The notes beneath the pieces are model-generated. The model saw only the letters and a program-made list of their open reading frames with translations, made no database searches and was not told the DNA's origin. Shown here in pieces: positions 1,513 to 48,298 of a DNA stretch of 64,000 nt; position 1 is the first letter of the stretch; every line of letters begins with the position of its first letter. This stretch comes from a virus. The stretch lies in the IMG/VR virus record IMGVR_UViG_3300032241_000811, positions 32,001-96,000 of that record. One strand, written 5' to 3'. Position numbers and translations under genes: made by a program.

Positions 1513-1604
1513 TGGCGGAATGTACTGGATTTGAACCAGTGGTACCTTTTTAGGGGTACGGCGGTTTAGCAAACCGCTGGAATAAGCCTCTCTCCCAACA
1601 TTCC
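1513..1604 (-). tRNA. tRNA-Ser(GCT)
   Basis: GCGGT-TTGCTAA-ACCGC anticodon arm, long variable arm, CCA. Confidence 0.92.
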
Positions 1605-1608
1605 ATTA

Positions 1609-2010
1609 TTATTCAAGATAAGGTATTCATTCTTCGGCGAAAGAGCAGTTCTTAGCCCCCTTGAATAGGGGTGCAATCTGTTCGTCTTTATATCCAGCCA
1701 ATCCACAACCGACACGTGTCACAAACCATTGTGTGTTTTGGTGTGATGTGATTTGGGTATACAGACAAAAGATTTCAATTGATCTAGCTATCGTTTGTAA
1801 ATCAAGTGTTTCTATACTTTGGTTTTTGGTAGCTATAGCATAACTATTTCCACAAAGACCTTGACCAGTTCCTCATACTGCACCAAACTTTTGGAGTGCC
1901 ACTTTAGCAGCGCCAGCACCATGAATGCCAGCTAGATTGCTTCCGAATACAAACACCTCCCCGTTTTGGGGAAGTGTTCCATCTCTATGGAATGTATATA
2001 GGTATGTCAT
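1609..2010 (-). pseudogene. Macro-like phage protein (FVFGSNLAG.HGAGAA family) with two in-frame TGA codons; pseudogene or UGA read-through gene
   Basis: 134-codon frame MTYLYTFHRDG...VFVFGSNLAGIHGAGAAKVALQKFGAV*GTGQG...FVTRVGCGLAGY...FAEE*IPYLE; TGA at 1873-1875 and 1627-1629. Confidence 0.8.
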
Positions 2011-2012
2011 AT

Positions 2013-2525
2013 CTAAGCTACCTTCAGCTTACGATCTTTCTTTTGTGTCATTTGCATGATAGCATCCTTGTAGCGGTCTGCACAATAACTTGCACACCAT
2101 GCGTCTGGCTTGACCATAGGAATAACATTGCACATACCGCGAATGTATCCAACAGCTTCATTGATAACACATGAAGAACCTTCCTTGAGGTCTGGGTTGA
2201 TGTCAAGATGAATCTCAACCTCGCGCTCACCGATGATGTCAACAAGCTTCAAGTATAGTTCTGCTGTCTTCATCACCTCAGTCATCAGGCGCAAACGCGG
2301 GCGATCCTTCTGCTGGTCATAGTCACGCTCACGAGTGATTTCACCAAACACACGGCAGCCGTTCTTGCCATTTATATGGACAACAACGACATTGATGTAG
2401 TCAGCATACCAAACACCATCCATCTGGAAACGCTCGGAGTCGCCACCGATGTATACCTTTGTGTCCAGCGATTGGGTGTTTAGAAATGCTGTGAGTTCGT
2501 CTAAATCTAACTTTTTGCGTAACAT
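2013..2525 (-). CDS. RNase H-like YkuK/DUF458 family protein
   Basis: YIGGDS...RLMTEV...EIHLDIN...KPDAWCASYCAD. Confidence 0.8.
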   Translation of the reverse strand: MLRKKLDLDELTAFLNTQSLDTKVYIGGDSERFQMDGVWYADYINVVVVHINGKNGCRVFGEITRERDYDQQKDRPRLRLMTEVMKTAELYLKLVDIIGEREVEIHLDINPDLKEGSSCVINEAVGYIRGMCNVIPMVKPDAWCASYCADRYKDAIMQMTQKKDRKLKVA

Positions 2526-2535
2526 GATTTTATCC

Positions 2536-2958
2536 TTAGTTTAGTTTCAGTTCTATCCTCTGTCTGAGTTCTGTGGAACTGAAACCATGGCGGCGTTTAT
2601 TGAAATAGTAATCCATATTCAGATCACTACCGGTGAAATCTTTTCCTTTGTATTCTTCACCTAGTATTCTAACATCTATTGGTAGGGTTGTCAACAGATC
2701 ATAGAGTTCCTTTTCCGTGTTATAGACAACAATCTCATCCATAAATTTGCAAGCACGGACCTGCAAAACCCTTTCTACGATTGATTGAATGGGTTTGTTC
2801 TTTTGTGGGCGATCAATGGTTGGATCAATCTGAATACCGACTATGAGCCAATCACATTGTCTTTTTGCTTCTTCAAGCATAGTCACATGACCTGTATGAA
2901 ATAAATCAAAAGCACTGCAAGTAAATCCGATTCGTTTATGTTCCATATTATACTCCAA
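2536..2958 (-). CDS. Cytidylyltransferase (TagD/glycerol-3-phosphate cytidylyltransferase-like)
   Basis: FDLFHTGH (HxGH motif), RHGFSSTELR. Confidence 0.88.
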   Translation of the reverse strand: MEYNMEHKRIGFTCSAFDLFHTGHVTMLEEAKRQCDWLIVGIQIDPTIDRPQKNKPIQSIVERVLQVRACKFMDEIVVYNTEKELYDLLTTLPIDVRILGEEYKGKDFTGSDLNMDYYFNKRRHGFSSTELRQRIELKLN

Positions 2959-2961
2959 AAG

Positions 2962-3035
2962 TGGTGCACAGAAGTAGAATCAAACTACTGTCTCCGCGTT
3001 ACGAGGGCGGCGTTATATTACTTAACTATTCGGGC
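2962..3035 (-). tRNA. Degenerate tRNA-Thr(CGT)
   Basis: CT-CGT-AA loop and CCA end; mismatched acceptor stem; 5' end overlaps the upstream ORF stop. Confidence 0.6.
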
Positions 3036-3715
3036 ATTCTTTTATGTGTTCCAAATCTTTTTCTATCTGGAAAATGGCTGGTCAAAAACATTATTAAGGG
3101 TTTAGGGTTATTCCAACCATATTCTTTAGAAAGTAATTTTGCGTTTTCACCTGATTCATATCTCTCTAAAATTGAAGATTTGTAATTTATGCGCCTTTTA
3201 CGTAGCAGTTCTTTTTCAGTTTCAATTTTTATTTTTTGAGGGTATTTCATCGACAAAGTTTTAGATATTTTCAGTTTTGTCTCGGTTGATCTAGGAATTA
3301 CTTTATTCCATGCTAATCTTGGCTTTTTTATCTTGACTTTTTGACTCTTGAGTAAACCTTTTTCTCTTAGATTTTCTCTAAGTTTTGTTCCTCCCAGTTT
3401 ACCTCTACGCTGTCTTTCTTCTTTTGTTATCGACTGATTGATGAAACCGAATCCACCGGGCCCTCCTGGACATATATTGTAGTTTGTTTCTTTATCAGGT
3501 ACAACTAAAATCTTCTCCAAAAGATTCATGTGTTTCTCATCTTTACAGTGATGAAGAATCTCTCTATGAAAGTTCTCTATTCCATGTTTCTTTATGGAAT
3601 GATTTAGTCTCTTACCTGAGCCAAAATAACCATCGTTTAGATCATTGGTTTTATGTTTGCCGATGTAATATTTTACATTCAGTAGATTGGACGTTTTATA
3701 GATGATATAGTGCAT
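3026..3715 (-). mobile_element. Free-standing GIY-YIG (Seg-like) homing endonuclease with NUMOD3-like motif
   Basis: IIYKT...YYIGKH...GYFGSG...YNI..GG.GGF; ETKLKISKTL. Confidence 0.88.
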
Positions 3716-3719
3716 TTTG

Positions 3720-3775
3720 GAAGGCTCCAGAAAATAAACCCATATAGGTTATTTATACTTCTGGAGCCTTCGATG
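3720..3775 (-). promoter_or_regulatory. Late-promoter hairpin leader copy 1 (sequesters the RBS)
   Basis: GAAGGCTCCAGAA...TTCTGGAGCCTTC inverted repeat enclosing TATAAATA (3750-3757) and ACCTATATGGG. Confidence 0.8.
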
Positions 3776-3846
3776 TGCTCCCAACAGGTACCGACCCTGT
3801 GTCTCAGCTTTACCAAAGCTGTGTACTACCTTTGTACTATGGGAGC
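3776..3846 (-). tRNA. tRNA-Thr(GGT), no encoded CCA
   Basis: CAGCT-TTGGTAA-AGCTG; GCTCCCA/TGGGAGC acceptor. Confidence 0.85.
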
Positions 3847-3986
3847 GGGCTGATTAAATCTTTCCTTGAAACCATGTTTATTTTTTCTTCCGTTAAGAGA
3901 CGCTGATATTTTTTATTGATTTCTTCTTGATTTCTCATTTGAACCTCCACACACATTTTATACTATTTATATGTGTGTGGAGGTTT
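3837..3986 (-). pseudogene. Remnant homing endonuclease with late-promoter hairpin leader
   Basis: AACCTCCACACACAT/ATGTGTGTGGAGGTT hairpin around TATAAATA; ATG at 3938; EEINKK|ISASL NUMOD-like motif broken by a frameshift in an A6 run. Confidence 0.55.
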
Positions 3987-3990
3987 ATAG

Positions 3991-4068
3991 TGGTGCGTTT
4001 GGAGGGATTCGAACCCATCACTGTACAGCTTCTAAGACTGTTGACTCCTACCGTTGGTCTACAAACGC
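3991..4068 (-). tRNA. tRNA-Leu(TAG), short variable region
   Basis: ACAGT-CTTAGAA-GCTGT, CCA. Confidence 0.85.
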
Positions 4069-4070
4069 AT

Positions 4071-4097
4071 GTGTCTCTACCGTTGGACTACGGGCCC
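4071..4097 (-). pseudogene. 5' fragment of a tRNA-Leu-like gene
   Basis: GGGCCCG-TA-GTCCAACGGTAGAGAC; D-arm resembles that of tRNA-Leu(TAA) at 7984; stops before the anticodon. Confidence 0.55.
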
Positions 4098-4103
4098 ATA
4101 AAC

Positions 4104-4178
4104 TGGTTGTCGATGATGGAATCGAACCATCGGACTTCCCCATGTCAAGGGGACGTTGTACCATTCAACTAATCGACA
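4104..4178 (-). tRNA. tRNA-Val(GAC)
   Basis: TCCCC-TTGACAT-GGGGA, CCA. Confidence 0.88.
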
Positions 4179-4179
4179 A

Positions 4180-4255
4180 TGGTAGTCCGAGAGGGATTCG
4201 AACCCCCGACATTCTGCATGTAAAGCAGACGCAGCTACCACTGTGCTACCGGACT
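4180..4255 (-). tRNA. tRNA-Val(TAC)
   Basis: TCTGC-TTTACAT-GCAGA, CCA. Confidence 0.92.
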
Positions 4256-4261
4256 ATATTC

Positions 4262-4336
4262 TGGAGCGGGCAACGGGAATCGAACCCGTGACTCAACCTT
4301 GGCAAGGTCATATGTTACCTCTAGAACCATGCCCGC
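4262..4336 (-). tRNA. tRNA-Gly(GCC)
   Basis: TT-GCC-AA loop, GCGGGCA acceptor, U73-CCA. Confidence 0.9.
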
Positions 4337-4343
4337 AATAATT

Positions 4344-4419
4344 TGGTACCTCCGCCAAGTTTCGAACTGGGTTATCGCCCTTATGAGGAGCGCACGATGT
4401 ACAACACCGTCCCGGAGGT
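4344..4419 (-). tRNA. tRNA with CAT anticodon (Met or Ile2), atypical D-arm
   Basis: CGCTC-CTCATAA-GGGCG; ACCTCCG/CGGAGGT acceptor; CCA. Confidence 0.7.
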
Positions 4420-4425
4420 ATATAG

Positions 4426-4500
4426 TGGTGCCTCAGAACGGAATTGAACCGCTGACACCATGCTCTTCAGGCAGACGCTCTACCACTGAACTACCGAGGC
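4426..4500 (-). tRNA. tRNA-Phe(GAA)
   Basis: CT-GAA-GA loop, standard D and T arms, CCA. Confidence 0.85.
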
Positions 4501-4507
4501 ATTATTT

Positions 4508-4582
4508 TGGAGCGAGTGGCCGGAATCGAACCGGTCCTCTACAGCTTGGAAGGCTGGGGCACCACCAATATACCACACTCGC
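4508..4582 (-). tRNA. tRNA-Gly(TCC)
   Basis: CAGC-CTTCCAA-GCTG, U73-CCA. Confidence 0.9.
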
Positions 4583-4590
4583 TTTATCTC

Positions 4591-4743
4591 TTATTCGTTT
4601 AGAAGCTGCTTTGTGCTTTCCTGTAGTTGCTGCTTGTTATGTTCGTCTAGTTTAGCAACATACTGTTCATTTGTCAAGCCATGCCAGCCAACGCAAAAAC
4701 CTGTTGGTGAACGACCGCAACCACATTTCTTTTTATCTGTCAT
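4591..4743 (-). CDS. Small CDGSH-like iron-sulfur protein
   Basis: CGCGRSPTGFCVGWH resembles CxCxxSxxxxxCDGSH; AAGGA RBS. Confidence 0.7.
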   Translation of the reverse strand: MTDKKKCGCGRSPTGFCVGWHGLTNEQYVAKLDEHNKQQLQESTKQLLNE

Positions 4744-4760
4744 TTTCTTTTCCTTATAGA

Positions 4761-4855
4761 TGGCGGAAGAGGTAGGATTTGAACCCACGGAACCCGATGT
4801 TAGCGGGTTCTCCGGTTTTCAAGACCGGTGCAATCAGCCACTCTGCCACTCTTCC
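4761..4855 (-). tRNA. tRNA-Ser(TGA)
   Basis: CCGGT-CTTGAAA-ACCGG, long variable arm, CCA. Confidence 0.93.
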
Positions 4856-4864
4856 TTATATATG

Positions 4865-5272
4865 TTAGTTTTTGATGATGGTTGCTTCAATCCGACAAAC
4901 GCCAGAACCAATGCAACCCAATAATACTGCGACATGTCTTGATAGGTCGATGTCTCTTCCCTTTACATAGGGGCCGCGATCATTTACGCGAACGATAACT
5001 GTCTTGCTGTTATGTTTCAATCTCAGTTTTGTTCCAAGTGGTAAAGTCTTGTGAGCAACCGTCAATGCGTTTGGGTTGAACTTTTCTCCGCTTGCGGTAA
5101 TCTTACTTCTGCTGCATTCACCTCTGTGTGCGCAGTCATACCATGATGCTCTCATATTGCTTGCTTGAGAGTCTTGTGTTGTTGTAAATATAATACTACA
5201 TATTACAAGAGTCTTTTGGATAATGCTTTTCGTTTTTATCAATATAGATACTCCTCTTTTTATGAGCATCAT
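4865..5272 (-). CDS. rlpA: RlpA-like (DPBB) lytic transglycosylase
   Basis: ASWY...TASGE.F....LT.AHKTLPLGT...VRVNDRGPYVKGRDIDLS; CATAAATA at 5303-5310; exact start uncertain. Confidence 0.88.
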   Translation of the reverse strand: MMLIKRGVSILIKTKSIIQKTLVICSIIFTTTQDSQASNMRASWYDCAHRGECSRSKITASGEKFNPNALTVAHKTLPLGTKLRLKHNSKTVIVRVNDRGPYVKGRDIDLSRHVAVLLGCIGSGVCRIEATIIKN

Positions 5273-5336
5273 TTTCTTCTTCCGAAAAAAACAATGTAGT
5301 TCTATTTATGGCATGACCAAACCCTTGATTTTTTAA

Positions 5337-5428
5337 TGGCGCGCCAGACAGGATTCGAACCTGCATCGGACATATAATCCACTCCAGTTACCTTTGTTCG
5401 CGTTCGTAGCGCGAGGGGATACTAACGC
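5337..5428 (-). ncRNA. D-armless tRNA-like RNA with Arg(ACG) anticodon arm and enlarged variable region
   Basis: GCGTTAG/CTGGCGC acceptor, 7-nt linker, TCGCG-CTACGAA-CGCGA, T-arm, CCA. Confidence 0.7.
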
Positions 5429-5432
5429 ATAT

Positions 5433-5507
5433 TGGAGGAGCAAACAGGAATTGAACCTGTATTGAGGGATTTGCAGTCCCTTGCATCAGCCATTCTGCCA
5501 TTGCTCC
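5433..5507 (-). tRNA. tRNA-Cys(GCA) copy 1
   Basis: AGGGA-CTGCAAA-TCCCT, U73-CCA. Confidence 0.92.
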
Positions 5508-5512
5508 GTTAT

Positions 5513-5587
5513 TGGCGACCCAAGTAGGACTCAAACCCACATCTCTTCGCTTTAGAGGCGACTGCATAATCACTCTGCCATTGGGTC
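5513..5587 (-). tRNA. Amber suppressor tRNA (anticodon CTA)
   Basis: GACCCAA/TTGGGTC acceptor, TCGC-CTCTAAA-GCGA anticodon arm, G73-CCA. Confidence 0.85.
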
Positions 5588-5594
5588 ATAATTC

Positions 5595-5602
5595 TATTTA
5601 TG
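5595..5602 (-). promoter_or_regulatory. Late-type promoter CATAAATA directly upstream of the suppressor tRNA
   Basis: NATAAATA ending 7 nt before the tRNA 5' end. Confidence 0.5.
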
Positions 5603-5908
5603 GTTGTTAATGATTAACAATTCATTATTTCTATAGCAGATAATATAACGTGAATCTATCCAAGCCATATGTGGATTGTTTTTCACGTGCTCCATAATCT
5701 GATTATATGTTTCAAATTTTGGACCAGGAGCACTAAACTTAGTAAATGCCAGATATTCTTGTTTCATCATCATAACTTTAATAATGCTTTATAGAAAAAA
5801 TCATTATGATACTTGTTGAAATACAGCGTATAATAATATCCAGGTTTAATAGGTTTGTTTTCTGGATATGTAAGCCACACTTCTTCTTGATTCATATTCA
5901 TTACAAAT

Positions 5909-6139
5909 TTAATTCTTGTTATCAGTTACAGTAAAACCAAGTTCAATCAAAAAAACTCTTATCTTATCAGAAACTTCATATTCTTTATTTTGTCTATATA
6001 TATCACGAATAGCATTTAATGCCGACAATAACATTGTTATTTTATGCTTTTGATTTTCTGAATACTTAGACATTATCTGAAGTTCATTCTCTAAACGATA
6101 AATTTCATACTGTAATTCATCTTTTGTTTTGTCAGACAT
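5909..6139 (-). CDS. Small protein with CysRS C-terminal anticodon-binding-like domain
   Basis: RDIYRQNKEYEVSDKIRVFLIELGFTVTD resembles R..AR..K.(W/F)..AD.IR..L...G..(L/V).D; AGGA RBS. Confidence 0.6.
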   Translation of the reverse strand: MSDKTKDELQYEIYRLENELQIMSKYSENQKHKITMLLSALNAIRDIYRQNKEYEVSDKIRVFLIELGFTVTDNKN

Positions 6140-6156
6140 AACAAATTCCTAAAAAA

Positions 6157-6231
6157 TGGAGGAGCAAACAGGAATTGAACCTGTATTGAGGGATTTGCAG
6201 TCCCTTGCATCAGCCATTCTGCCATTGCTCC
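6157..6231 (-). tRNA. tRNA-Cys(GCA) copy 2, identical to copy 1
   Basis: Exact 77-bp direct repeat of 5433-5509. Confidence 0.92.
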
Positions 6232-6239
6232 GTAAACAC

Positions 6240-6313
6240 TGGTGCTCCCACAGGGAATTGAACCCCGAATTGATGATTACAAATCAACTGTTATACCTTT
6301 TAACTATAGGAGC
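6240..6313 (-). tRNA. tRNA-Thr(TGT)
   Basis: TT-TGT-AA loop, CCA. Confidence 0.9.
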
Positions 6314-6324
6314 ATTTATAAAAT

Positions 6325-6401
6325 TGGCTGCTCGGGTAGGGATCGAACCTACGACATCCTGATTAACAGTCAGGCGCAACTACCGGCTGTGCTACCGAGC
6401 A
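6325..6401 (-). tRNA. tRNA-Asn(GTT)
   Basis: CCTGA-CTGTTAA-TCAGG, G73-CCA. Confidence 0.93.
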
Positions 6402-6461
6402 ATGAATTTCGCTCCGATTTCTTATAGTGGTTACGGCCTCCACTTATTTGCCTATGTTGTT

Positions 6462-6490
6462 ATTCTAGACTATTACACAGGCTAAGTCAA
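6462..6490 (-). promoter_or_regulatory. Sigma70-type promoter for the tRNA operon
   Basis: TTGACT-N17-TAGAAT. Confidence 0.75.
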
Positions 6491-6498
6491 GCCCTATT

Positions 6499-6572
6499 TG
6501 GCTGCCCGTCATGGAATCGAACCACTGTAACAGGTTCCACAAACCTGCGTTCTACCATTGAACTAAAACGGA
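6499..6572 (-). tRNA. Chimeric/degenerate tRNA-His(GTG)
   Basis: CAGGT-TTGTGGA-ACCTG arm, but the 3' acceptor strand ACGGGCA-G-CCA does not match the 5' strand. Confidence 0.55.
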
Positions 6573-6573
6573 G

Positions 6574-6648
6574 TGGTAGTCCCAGAGGGAATCAAACCCT
6601 CATCTCCGCCTTGAAAGGGCAGCGATCTAATCACTAATCTATGGGACC
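6574..6648 (-). tRNA. tRNA-Glu(TTC)
   Basis: CTGCC-CTTTCAA-GGCGG, CCA. Confidence 0.85.
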
Positions 6649-6654
6649 GTTGTT

Positions 6655-6731
6655 TGGATGCGGGAGGAAGATTTGCACTTCCGATCTCCGACTTATGAGG
6701 CCGGTGAGATAGTCTGCTTCTCTATCCCGCA
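6655..6731 (-). tRNA. tRNA-Met(CAT), initiator-like body
   Basis: TGCGGGA/TCCCGCA acceptor, CT-CAT-AA loop. Confidence 0.8.
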
Positions 6732-6737
6732 ATAATT

Positions 6738-6812
6738 TGGAGGACGCAATGGGATTCGAACCCATGACTTACGGTTTAAAAGACCGCTACTCTACCACTG
6801 AGTTATGCGTCC
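6738..6812 (-). tRNA. tRNA-Lys(TTT)
   Basis: GCGGT-CTTTTAA-ACCGT, CCA. Confidence 0.92.
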
Positions 6813-6816
6813 ATAA

Positions 6817-6890
6817 TGGCTGGGAGACAGGGACTCGAACCCCAATATACGGAATCAAAATCCGCAGTCCTACCATTAGACGATCTCCCA
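6817..6890 (-). tRNA. tRNA-Gln(TTG)
   Basis: GCGGA-TTTTGAT-TCCGT, U1-A72, G73-CCA. Confidence 0.92.
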
Positions 6891-6893
6891 ATA

Positions 6894-7271
6894 TTATTGT
6901 GAAAGTCTCTTTGCTTTAGCTTCTGCTGAGACTGACTCAAATAGGTTCATGTTGTCATGGACTCTCTTGACATCTTCTTCTACATTTGGATTGTAGTCTT
7001 TGAAGTTGTCGCCGTGACCGAGCAAGAGATGGCACTCTTTGTCCATGCACAAAGTAATAAGATTTGTTGGTTCAAGTTCTAATTCAGGAAACAAGTGGAA
7101 CGGCTTCTTGTGATGCACATTCAGCTTCTTGTCTGAACCGCAGCAAGCACATACTGGTTGTTCTTTTAGGTGTGCGTGTTCTACTGCTGGCCAATGAGGG
7201 CTGCGCGGCTTTTCAATGCCTGCTGCATCGTCTCTGTTGGCTGCGACTGATAAATCTTTCTTCTGTGTCAT
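6894..7271 (-). CDS. Small HNH-motif protein
   Basis: CACCG...LNVHHKKP...NLITLC...CHLLLGH. Confidence 0.8.
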   Translation of the reverse strand: MTQKKDLSVAANRDDAAGIEKPRSPHWPAVEHAHLKEQPVCACCGSDKKLNVHHKKPFHLFPELELEPTNLITLCMDKECHLLLGHGDNFKDYNPNVEEDVKRVHDNMNLFESVSAEAKAKRLSQ

Positions 7272-7307
7272 ATCAATACTCCTTGGTTGACGGAGTATTT
7301 ATGAAAT

Positions 7308-7352
7308 TGGTACTAGCGGGTGGGATCGAACCACCTACCACACGGTTATCAG
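7308..7352 (-). pseudogene. 3' half of tRNA-Ile(GAT)
   Basis: CTGATAA loop, T-arm and ACCA present; 5' half missing. Confidence 0.75.
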
Positions 7353-7419
7353 TTTGATGTTTACCTATGTAGAATTTTTGATTTATTTTGTTAGTAATAT
7401 GATAGATAGTGTAGAACAT
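7345..7419 (-). pseudogene. Truncated GIY-YIG endonuclease (first ~25 codons)
   Basis: MFYTIYHITNKINQKFYIGKHQTDN, paralogous to the N-terminus of 3026-3715, fused to the tRNA half. Confidence 0.8.
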
Positions 7420-7423
7420 TTAG

Positions 7424-7478
7424 AGAATCCGATTTGTATAAGCCCATATAGGTTATTTATACAAATCGGATTCTGATG
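7424..7478 (-). promoter_or_regulatory. Late-promoter hairpin leader copy 2
   Basis: AGAATCCGATTTGTATAA/TTATACAAATCGGATTCT with TATAAATAACCTATATGGG. Confidence 0.8.
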
Positions 7479-7554
7479 TCAGCGTAGATGGATTTGAACC
7501 ATCGGTCTCCTGCTCCCAAGGCAGGCGGATTAAACCATACTTTCCCACACGCTG
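7479..7554 (-). tRNA. tRNA-Pro(TGG), no encoded CCA
   Basis: CCTGC-CTTGGGA-GCAGG; C1-G72. Confidence 0.88.
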
Positions 7555-7560
7555 TTATTC

Positions 7561-7604
7561 TGGCGACCCATAGCGGTTACGATCCGCTGACACATCTTAG
7601 ACAG
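7561..7604 (-). pseudogene. 3' half of tRNA-Asp(GTC)
   Basis: CTGTCTA loop, T-arm and TGGGTC-GCCA end; 5' half missing. Confidence 0.7.
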
Positions 7605-7605
7605 A

Positions 7606-7661
7606 GAAGCCTCCGAATACTAAACCCATATAGGTTATTTAGTAAACGGAGGACTTCAATG
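7606..7661 (-). promoter_or_regulatory. Late-promoter hairpin leader copy 3 (downstream ORF deleted)
   Basis: GAAGTCCTCCG...CGGAGGCTTC around CTAAATAACCTATATGGG. Confidence 0.75.
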
Positions 7662-7750
7662 TAGGCGTGTAGGGACTCGAACCCTAGCGAGAACACCGAT
7701 CTAGTGCTAAAGGGATTATAAGGCCCTCCGGTATACCTATACTCACGCCT
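7662..7750 (-). tRNA. Atypical tRNA with TAT anticodon, tetraloop D-arm and long variable arm
   Basis: AGGCGTG/CACGCCT acceptor, GTAT-AGGT-ATAC D-arm, CTTATAA loop, AGCACT/GGTGTT extra arm, T-arm. Confidence 0.65.
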
Positions 7751-7758
7751 TTATTTGT

Positions 7759-7944
7759 TTACAACACCTTGGCAATCAGCCAGAGAATACCTACAACAAG
7801 AATAATCACAATCAAGATGACGGGAATAGCCCAGAAAGGCGCAAGAACCCACCACCAAGACCAGTCAATATAACCCATAAGCTTCAACACAATGAACACA
7901 ATACCCAATGTGCTGAGAAAACCAGGTCCTACTTGAACGCTCAC
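7759..7944 (-). CDS. Small membrane protein (IDWSWWWVLAP type)
   Basis: Two hydrophobic helices and a motif common in phage membrane proteins. Confidence 0.75.
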   Translation of the reverse strand: MSVQVGPGFLSTLGIVFIVLKLMGYIDWSWWWVLAPFWAIPVILIVIILVVGILWLIAKVL

Positions 7945-7983
7945 ATTCTTATCTATGACAATATATCCTTTTCAAAACATTTT

Positions 7984-8059
7984 TGGTAGCCGCTGTGGGA
8001 CTCGAACCCACCCTTGGACGATTTTAAGTCGTCTGTCTCTACCACTGGACTAAGCGGCC
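7984..8059 (-). tRNA. tRNA-Leu(TAA), short variable loop
   Basis: GACGA-CTTAAAA-TCGTC, CCA. Confidence 0.88.
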
Positions 8060-8066
8060 GATATTC

Positions 8067-8143
8067 TGGCGGTCCCGGAGGGATTCGAACCCCCAACTCG
8101 CCGCTTAGAAGGCGGCTGCTCTATCCAGTTGAACTACGGAACC
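8067..8143 (-). tRNA. tRNA-Arg(TCT)
   Basis: GCCGC-CTTCTAA-GCGGC, CCA. Confidence 0.93.
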
Positions 8144-8153
8144 AATAATCTAT

Positions 8154-8357
8154 TTATATAGTTGCAGCAACATCCTTATAGAAGGCTTCAATAAACTTAC
8201 CATCAAGAAACTTTTCGCCCGTCTCAGCAGCCTTAACATAGTCCACAAAGAATAGCTTGTGTATGATAGCATCATCTTCATAGCATGTCAAGTCAAAACC
8301 AATCGGGTCTCCGATATGCAACTCGATATCATACGAACGGTGGCGTGAAAGCATCAT
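8154..8357 (-). CDS. Hypothetical protein
   Basis: ORF in the gene-dense minus-strand run. Confidence 0.55.
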   Translation of the reverse strand: MMLSRHRSYDIELHIGDPIGFDLTCYEDDAIIHKLFFVDYVKAAETGEKFLDGKFIEAFYKDVAATI

Positions 8358-17508: not shown

Positions 17509-17739
17509 CTAGTTATTGAATGCGTTTGGTGTTTTCAGTTTCTCGGCGGTTGTGACAGTCACATTACCATTCTCATTATTGAGTAGAAACAATGGTGTCA
17601 ACCCTGCGTTTTTATATTCGTCTGCCATCTTGATGATCTTTTGCAGGTTGCTGCCTTTTTCAGGACCAAGAATATCAAGCCCTTCTTGAATCATCTGTTG
17701 TGAAATCACTATCAGATTATCTTCTTCACCAGAAATCAC
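17509..17739 (-). CDS. Hypothetical protein
   Basis: ORF in the operon; GAGGT RBS. Confidence 0.6.
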   Translation of the reverse strand: MISGEEDNLIVISQQMIQEGLDILGPEKGSNLQKIIKMADEYKNAGLTPLFLLNNENGNVTVTTAEKLKTPNAFNN

Positions 17740-47485: not shown

Positions 47486-47685
47486 TATGATTTGGACTTT
47501 TTTTTTCTCTCTGTCTGATTAGCTGCTTGCAACTCTGCATCAAACTTCTTCAATGCTTTACCTATGTGGTAGCTGATTGTGTCAAGGCGCTTTCTATAGT
47601 TAGCCCTGATATAGACATTTTCCTTGCTATTCAATAGCAACTTGATGAGATGTTCCACCTGAAATGGAATTTCTTGTTCTTGCAT
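47485..47685 (-). CDS. Small conserved hypothetical protein
   Basis: IPFQVEHLI...R.NYR.RL. Confidence 0.6.
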   Translation of the reverse strand: MQEQEIPFQVEHLIKLLLNSKENVYIRANYRKRLDTISYHIGKALKKFDAELQAANQTERKKKSKS

Positions 47686-48298
47686 TTGATTTTATTTCAA
47701 CCTCTTTCTTTACTATACTTTCATCATCATAAAACTTGTCAAGACCTTCCTTGACGATCTTTCTTTTGGCCTTTTTGAGTTCTTCCTTTTTCTCATACTT
47801 GCTCATAAAGTCATTTATGTTATCATACATTGGCGCTGTTAGCAAGTGATTATTATCACTATCTGTCAAAAGACTATCTTTACCATAGTTCACAATGTTT
47901 TCCTGGAAGTTCTTGTAAATGGTATATCTCTGTCTTTCTTCCTTGCTGATACGCCTTAGGAAGGCATAATACACTATTTGCGTGAAATATGCAAATGGAT
48001 TATCATACTTTTCAGGATTGAAATCATTGAAATACATAATGCAGTTTTCAATACCATCCGAAATCATTTCATCACGAAACGAATAGCTGATAAAGCAAGG
48101 CTTGTTGGATAACTTTGATGCTATACGGTATATACAGTCACCAATATAGTTGGACAGCTTGGGGTCAGGTAATCCTTTCTGTCTGTATTCCTCAACCTTC
48201 TTCTTGTGTTTCAGTATTTCATCGTAGAATGTCTTGTTATTGACATAGTGGACGACTTCTTTTTTTGCTTTAGTAATATTTTTTTCTACCTGACTCAT
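47627..48298 (-). CDS. 55: Late transcription sigma factor (gp55)
   Basis: HYVNNK, EMISDGIENC, NPFAYFTQI.YYAFLRRI. Confidence 0.95.
   Translation of the reverse strand: MSQVEKNITKAKKEVVHYVNNKTFYDEILKHKKKVEEYRQKGLPDPKLSNYIGDCIYRIASKLSNKPCFISYSFRDEMISDGIENCIMYFNDFNPEKYDNPFAYFTQIVYYAFLRRISKEERQRYTIYKNFQENIVNYGKDSLLTDSDNNHLLTAPMYDNINDFMSKYEKKEELKKAKRKIVKEGLDKFYDDESIVKKEVEIKSNARTRNSISGGTSHQVAIE

Follow-up and report, generated by a model that had tools for sequence, protein, structure and literature searches.

Escherichia coli su7, a tRNA-Trp whose anticodon is changed from CCA to CUA and which inserts mainly Gln, arose in the laboratory through one anticodon change in a known tRNA, as did phage T4 psu1, a tRNA-Ser suppressor showing that functional amber suppression can be encoded within a phage tRNA cluster. 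Phages that have reassigned TAG (genetic code 15), including crAss-like and Lak phages among others, encode a tRNA(CUA) of their own, probably charged by the glutaminyl- or tryptophanyl-tRNA synthetase (GlnRS or TrpRS) of the host, and the model of Borges et al. includes standard-code relatives that gained a suppressor (bioRxiv 10.1101/2021.08.26.457843). Suppressor tRNAs in standard-code phages have also been published: the Xanthomonas jumbo phage XacN1 carries CUA suppressors without an identifiable target while using the standard code (PMC5852040), and the T4-like Agrobacterium phage Atu_ph07 carries a UCA suppressor (PMC6102473). Here we describe another example, a tRNA(CUA) gene (5513-5587, minus strand) enclosed by two identical tRNA-Cys genes in a window of 64,000 nucleotides, which comprises bases 32001-96000 of the 109,580-bp linear virus contig IMGVR_UViG_3300032241_000811 from IMG/VR (CheckV completeness 63%). 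Coordinates are window positions unless prefixed by the name of another contig.

Like XacN1 and Atu_ph07, this phage has a suppressor-type tRNA among many canonical tRNAs. In contrast to both, however, the gene lies in a low-GC insertion between identical tRNA-Cys genes, behind a T4-type late promoter and beside a miniprotein resembling CysS_C, the C-terminal domain of cysteinyl-tRNA synthetase (CysRS), and the tRNAs of XacN1 lack sequence similarity to it. It also differs from the TAG-recoded phages in that we found no in-frame TAG, no TAG depletion, a GC content of 41% instead of a low one, and no partner release factor 2 (RF2) or aminoacyl-tRNA synthetase. The CUCUAAA loop, one base away from a Trp loop, and the G73 discriminator recall su7, but unlike su7 and psu1 this gene occurs naturally and has no clear parent isotype. 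The explanation that we consider probable is that a genuine suppressor-type tRNA gene resides in a standard-code T4-like phage on a recently acquired, still excisable low-GC cassette; the locus does not reflect recoding of the genome.

An intact tRNA gene with a CUA anticodon

The original prediction of an intact tRNA with a CUA anticodon, an encoded CCA end and G73 was confirmed. Both ARAGORN and Rfam support a 75-nt tRNA at 5513-5587 with its anticodon at 5555-5553, and the discriminator G and the CCA end can be read directly from the sequence. The Rfam RF00005 score of 52.1 bits is well above the gathering threshold of 29, the other tRNAs of the array scoring 39.9-75.2 bits. ARAGORN folds the gene into a cloverleaf with stems of 7/3/5/5 bp, the 7-bp acceptor stem being entirely Watson-Crick paired, and the anticodon loop CUCUAAA presents U33, the CUA triplet and A37. 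Judged by its sequence and predicted structure, this is an intact amber-suppressor-type tRNA. Elsewhere in IMG/VR, a tRNA(CUA) with an identical 19-nt anticodon arm, G73 and a fully paired anticodon stem occurs at L087:2031-2107 (IMGVR_UViG_3300050821_016722), an unrelated GC-rich viral contig of 26.9 kb.

Comparison with related phages, which were found through their helicase (60-76% identity) and likewise have large tRNA arrays downstream of it, argued against two potential parents. As had been noted, the D-arm of tRNA(CUA) does resemble that of the neighboring tRNA-Cys, with which it agrees at 19 of 25 positions, but the tRNA-Lys (19 positions) and the tRNA-Leu and tRNA-Ser (18 each) of related phages match equally well, so that this likeness is no proof of descent from tRNA-Cys and we do not support such descent. 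Descent from tRNA-Gln(CUG) was also rejected. This tRNA lies directly before tRNA-Cys, in the slot taken by tRNA(CUA) here, in L008 and in the best-covered relative, L007 (contig G001); the sequences are unrelated, homology ends at the 5' end of tRNA-Cys, and the Gln tRNAs begin with a U1-A72 pair.

Within the window and the arrays of the relatives, the tRNAs that carry G73 are those for Arg, Asn, Asp, Gln, Ser and Trp, and of these only Gln(CUG) and Trp(CCA) could be turned into CUA by changing a single anticodon base. The only significant database match of tRNA(CUA) was a tRNA-Trp of Xanthomonas phage PB119 (43/53, E=3e-5), whose anticodon arm is the same apart from the middle anticodon base. 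In bacterial genomes, the same combination of anticodon stem and T-stem was found in Leu, Arg, Lys, Thr and Cys tRNAs, with no tRNA-Trp among the 120 matches listed, and tRNA(CUA) is not close to the Trp or Gln tRNAs of the relatives. Amber suppressors that combine G73 with U35 tend to be GlnRS substrates and, less so, TrpRS substrates, and our best guess for the inserted residue is Gln or Trp.

TAG is an ordinary stop codon in this phage

The contig, which holds almost all of its genes on the minus strand, encodes a T4-type protein set: a gp43-type DNA polymerase with 52% identity to cyanomyovirus polymerases, a DnaB-like helicase, portal and scaffold proteins, a gp46/47-like nuclease, the major head protein, the head protease, the tail-tube protein, UvsY and a gp55-type late sigma factor (47627-48298; E=1.9e-53). 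The source is therefore an uncultivated T4-like myovirus. Mean GC content is 41.3%, and coding density over the whole contig is 94% under code 11.

Analysis of the stop codons of the 136 main-strand genes revealed 84 TAA, 33 TGA (24%) and 19 TAG (14%), and the TAG-terminated genes include those for the late sigma factor gp55, the tail-tube protein, the head maturation protease and the gp46-like nuclease. The earlier observation that core and structural genes lack in-frame TAG, which had spoken against genome-wide code 15, extends from the window to the conserved genes of the whole 109.6-kb contig, and the core proteins align with their profiles from end to end. The frame remains open past TAG for a median of 8 codons (maximum 64), and these extensions are no longer than those after TGA (median 7) or TAA (median 10). 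The position of TAG here coincides with the C-terminus of the G001 orthologues, the closest tail-tube homologues terminate exactly where TAG stands, and changes between TAG and TAA relative to G001 go both ways, six in one direction and five in the other. G001, which lacks a suppressor, uses TAG in 13 of 133 genes (9.8%). The phage uses the standard code rather than code 15, and TAG is an ordinary stop, including in essential late genes.

Avoidance of TAG in late genes was considered and dropped: genes with a late promoter favor TAA (18 of 21) at the expense of TGA and TAG alike, so the bias is not specific to TAG. Searches of the contig, which is about 63% complete, for a release factor (PF00472), GlnRS (PF00749) or TrpRS (PF00579) gave no match while control genomes were positive, and the PTH2 family (PF01981) gave none at E<=1.

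A specific read-through target had been put forward, the TAG at 17509-17511, in frame with the gene that follows it. This proved to be a normal stop. The TAG (17511-17509) lies within a ribosome-binding site, TAGGAG, situated 9 nt ahead of the start codon (ATG) of a conserved gene for 61 aa, which starts at its own conserved Met in every relative, and in L007 and L003 the upstream gene and the 61-aa gene are in different frames. A second in-frame pair, at 488, was rejected because no fused homologue exists. A contig-wide check for genes split by TAG, as had been envisaged for such targets, found none among conserved genes; the search for genes with an early TAG returned only off-frame or upstream noise, and none of the open reading frames (ORFs) neighboring tRNA(CUA) contains an early in-frame TAG. 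No gene on the 109.6-kb contig requires the suppressor.

A low-GC islet between two identical tRNA-Cys genes

The exact 77-bp direct repeat reported on either side of the islet is present as described, with copies that are 100% identical and spaced by 724 bp. Each copy on the minus strand consists of a tRNA-Cys(GCA) gene and 2 nt on its 5' side. The upstream copy (6157-6233; tRNA at 6157-6231, 64.7 bits) follows tRNA-Thr(UGU), and the downstream copy (5433-5509; tRNA at 5433-5507) lies 5 nt past tRNA(CUA). The downstream copy keeps the ancestral 3' neighbor, with homology to G001 spanning a conserved tRNA-like element and continuing to the 5' end of tRNA-Cys. The relatives have one tRNA-Cys each, and tRNA(CUA) occurs in none of them. 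The 569 bp that carry the three small ORFs of the islet have a GC content of 26.7%, the lowest on the contig, where the minimum elsewhere is 27.8% per 569 nt.

Exact repeats, foreign composition and absence from relatives fit a recent insertion, supporting the proposal that the islet was recently gained, with recombination at tRNA-Cys as the putative route. The two identical repeats also support the proposal that the module is excisable, as homologous recombination between them would delete it. In contrast, an integrase-borne island at a tRNA gene does not describe the locus: no integrase-like ORF is present in the islet, and the repeat takes in the complete tRNA together with 2 nt on its 5' side, whereas att-type repeats would consist of the 3' part of a tRNA.

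Since assemblers often use a k-mer size of 77 and the 801-bp unit is shaped like a graph loop, we also considered whether the duplication was created during assembly, and searches of IMG/VR, JGI metagenomes and GenBank phages found neither an independent assembly nor a close relative of the islet. However, the same contig resolves longer exact repeats elsewhere (98 and 84 bp), so 77 bp is not at the assembler limit, and the length of the repeat is accounted for by a 75-nt tRNA plus 2 nt. We regard the duplication as real, although a slight doubt remains.

A late-promoter box sharing the geometry of the first tRNA of the array

A T4-type late-promoter box, CATAAATA, occupies minus-strand positions 5602-5595 and ends 7 nt short of the 5' end of tRNA(CUA). 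The NATAAATA motif is found in 33 copies on the coding strand compared with three on the other strand, typically 24-31 nt before the ATGs of structural genes, and is a genuine late-promoter motif in this phage. The strand bias, the placement before structural genes and the encoded gp55-type sigma factor make the box before tRNA(CUA) credible; the assignment as T4-type is based on the motif together with the gp55-like factor. Other late boxes are located at 7461, 7303, 5310, 3971 and 3757.

The box was correctly predicted, but its position is not special to tRNA(CUA). The first tRNA of the array, Arg(UCU), with its 5' end at 8143 on the minus strand, is preceded by TATAAATA at the identical 7-nt spacing; both boxes (Arg(UCU), 8143-8158; tRNA(CUA), 5587-5602) end exactly 7 nt before the mature 5' end and have similar flanks, NATAAATAGAWTAT. 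Because of this spacing, late transcripts would be expected to begin within 1-2 nt of the Arg(UCU) and CUA tRNAs and thus to be nearly leaderless. This promoter geometry, common to tRNA(CUA) and the first tRNA of the array, is a new point of the present analysis. No terminators or σ70 promoters above chance were found inside the islet.

Small proteins of the islet

The three AT-rich small ORFs reported between the repeats encode 76, 43 and 59 aa, fill 5594-6139 on the minus strand with a GC content of 25-31%, and are open under the standard code. ORF43 (5770-5901, GC 26.5%) is an ORFan with no family match, and ORF59 (5594-5773) is an ORFan that found only itself among 5.8 billion proteins and whose TAG stop lies inside the promoter box (CATAAATAG).

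The remaining protein, ORF76 (5909-6139, GC 25.5%), consists of an N-terminal helix followed by a region related to CysS_C. Three small homologues of 75-93 aa with 36-48% identity were found among 1.8 billion representative proteins (alignment A5), and the profile of the four small proteins matched the C-terminus of CysRS in two structures, 6ujd_A (414-484 of 494; E=1e-5) and 8qhp_A (434-478 of 490; E=3.6e-5). A phmmer search with ORF76 returned two repeat proteins containing PF23493 (E=5e-5 and 1.3e-4), and the lead from the ESM Atlas was likewise the CysRS C-terminal domain. Over residues ~26-75, ORF76 can be aligned to the final ~50 residues of CysRS, with a conserved basic/acidic motif in common. 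Unlike CysRS, however, ORF76 is a stand-alone protein of 76 aa without a catalytic domain, and taken alone it falls below the Pfam cut-off, hmmscan giving no CysS_C match even at E<=10; a single-sequence fold model (pLDDT 75) gave no significant match in the Protein Data Bank (PDB). From the profile alignments, we regard the homology to the CysRS C-terminal anticodon-binding domain as real but distant, and this stand-alone relative of CysS_C as a second new point. That it is placed between two tRNA-Cys genes and next to a suppressor hints at a possible functional link.

The only IMG/VR relative of the CysS_C-like motif is a 92-aa protein of another large phage, at L097:2860-3138 (IMGVR_UViG_3300032893_000002, 180 kb), which has the motif KNYEVSD..IR and a Cys-rich N-terminus. 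There is no tRNA within 3 kb of it.

The surrounding tRNA array

All 24 tRNA genes of the contig belong to one array (1513-8143), which is interrupted by two homing endonuclease genes, one of the HNH type (6894-7271) and one of the GIY-YIG, SegE-like type (3026-3715). The array lacks a tRNA-Trp, which the relatives L007 and L013 possess. The tRNA-like element mentioned above occupies 89 nt (5340-5428, minus strand) 3' of tRNA-Cys and outside the insertion. Its T-arm is canonical, its acceptor stem has 7 bp and its 3' end is CCA, but a normal D-arm is missing; the score with the Rfam tRNA model is 27.6 bits, below threshold, with no ARAGORN call. A homologue follows tRNA-Cys in the divergent relative L007 (L007:18181-18290), and both its acceptor stem and an internal hairpin (loop CUACGAA) show compensatory changes.

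Several further observations were made in the array. A fragment at 7322-7353 (minus strand), without an ARAGORN or Rfam call, resembles the part of tRNA-Ile(GAU) from the anticodon loop to the T-arm and lies just upstream of the HNH gene; it may be a tRNA gene broken by the HNH insertion. Discriminator bases in the arrays of the window, L003, L007, L008, L013 and L014 depart from E. coli rules, with A73 in five of five tRNA-Glu genes and U73 in five of eight tRNA-Lys genes across the window and the relatives' arrays, which may bear on the identity of the host. A gene of 133 codons at 1612-2010 (minus strand) shows 57-61% full-length identity to a widespread phage protein with homologues in Xanthomonas phage BUDD, Acidovorax phage ACP17 and Rhizobium phage RHph_X2_28B. 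It is broken only by two TGA codons, both at columns of conserved Trp (or Tyr), while a non-conserved Trp is encoded by TGG, and no tRNA(UCA) was found on the contig. Leaky decoding of UGA as Trp, origin from a donor with recoded TGA, or decay into a pseudogene that is still very young could account for it.

Discussion

The explanation that best accounts for these results, and which we hold to be on the whole likely, is that the 724-bp insertion is a low-GC cassette consisting of the CysS_C-like miniprotein, two ORFans, the late promoter, tRNA(CUA) and a second tRNA-Cys. We propose that it entered a hyperplastic tRNA array rich in homing endonucleases by recombination at tRNA-Cys, leaving the 77-bp duplication. 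A polymerase carrying the gp55-type factor would then use the CATAAATA box to initiate some 1-2 nt upstream of tRNA(CUA), and the transcript would run through tRNA(CUA), tRNA-Cys and the tRNA-like element. Charging would fall to a host synthetase that accepts a CUA anticodon and uses G73, most likely GlnRS or TrpRS, and late in infection the charged tRNA would compete at UAG with release factor 1. On the contig, the predicted effect is the addition of short tails, with a median of 8 residues, to 19 phage proteins. Because no gene on the contig needs tRNA(CUA), its selected role, if any, would be partial read-through or the expression of an amber-interrupted gene in the roughly one third of the genome that is missing, two options that together we judge somewhat more probable than the absence of both.

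Several findings weigh against this explanation. A G.A mismatch tops the anticodon stem, the sole blemish of the tRNA. Parentage is ambiguous, as the Trp match is set against a stem common to many isotypes. There is no homologue of tRNA(CUA) in the relatives that would indicate conservation, and no target gene was found on the 109.6-kb contig at its ~63% completeness. Moreover, efficient late suppression would add 23 residues to the tail-tube protein and alter the head protease and the late sigma factor, which argues that suppression is weak or absent.

The alternative that survives best, although we think it rather unlikely, is that tRNA(CUA) is a passenger of a foreign low-GC cassette, the donor possibly being a low-GC phage with recoded TAG, that it is neutral or slightly harmful here and that it will be lost by recombination between the 77-bp repeats. 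Recoded phages have been reported to be low in GC (bioRxiv 10.1101/2021.08.26.457843), and the islet is the compositional extreme of the contig, encodes proteins without close relatives in IMG/VR or GenBank phages, and has neither a detected target nor an accompanying depletion of TAG; in addition, the gene at 1612-2010 with its two in-frame TGA codons suggests that the region collects DNA of other codes or tolerates broken genes. However, the tRNA is intact and lies at a late promoter with the 7-nt geometry of the first array tRNA, the islet persists in the consensus despite its recombinogenic flanks, and its ORFs are open under the standard code.

Next, with much lower probability, the islet could be a module directed at tRNA-Cys, in which ORF76 binds the anticodon loop of tRNA-Cys or of tRNA(CUA), either to keep a host anticodon nuclease away from tRNA-Cys or to alter charging such that UAG is read as Cys or an unusual residue; on this view the second tRNA-Cys copy would belong to the device and would not be a scar. 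The relationship of ORF76 to the anticodon-binding domain of CysRS is consistent with this, as is its position directly after tRNA-Cys in one unit with tRNA(CUA) and the second tRNA-Cys. U73 is the main CysRS identity element and is present in all six tRNA-Cys genes of these phages, and its replacement by G73 in tRNA(CUA) argues against charging by CysRS. The L097 relative with no tRNA nearby, the failure of the Pfam model to score ORF76 and the lack of a significant PDB match for the fold model also speak against such a module.

Slightly less probable again is the suggestion of the original prediction that the suppressor marks an early step toward TAG reassignment, with in-frame TAGs in late or lysis genes to follow. 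The published model does put suppressor gain before recoding, standard-code relatives with suppressors exist, and tRNA(CUA) has a late promoter. Nevertheless, TAG usage is higher here than in suppressor-less G001 (14% compared with 9.8%), TAG terminates essential late genes, the GC content is 41%, no RF2, GlnRS or TrpRS was found on the contig, and the proposed target is an ordinary stop. Because TAG still terminates essential late genes, our data favor a passenger or a narrow use over recoding.

Least probable of all is an artefact or minority variant, that is, the assembly loop discussed above or an error or polymorphism at U35 of an ordinary tRNA-Trp(CCA), which the missing tRNA-Trp of the array, the G73 that fits Trp, the anticodon arm one base from that of a phage tRNA-Trp and the lack of an independent assembly would suit, but against which stand the longer repeats resolved on the same contig, the tRNA-defined repeat length, the distance of tRNA(CUA) from the relatives' Trp tRNAs outside the anticodon arm and the rarity of consensus base errors at normal coverage.

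In sum, the genuine tRNA gene on a recently acquired cassette that we favor adds a T4-like, non-gut phage of 41% GC to the standard-code phages with a stop-codon-reading tRNA. As a seemingly fresh and still excisable insertion, it offers an intermediate for asking whether such tRNAs are passengers, gene-specific switches or steps toward recoding, and the stand-alone protein related to the CysRS anticodon-binding domain represents an unstudied family and a concrete biochemical lead.

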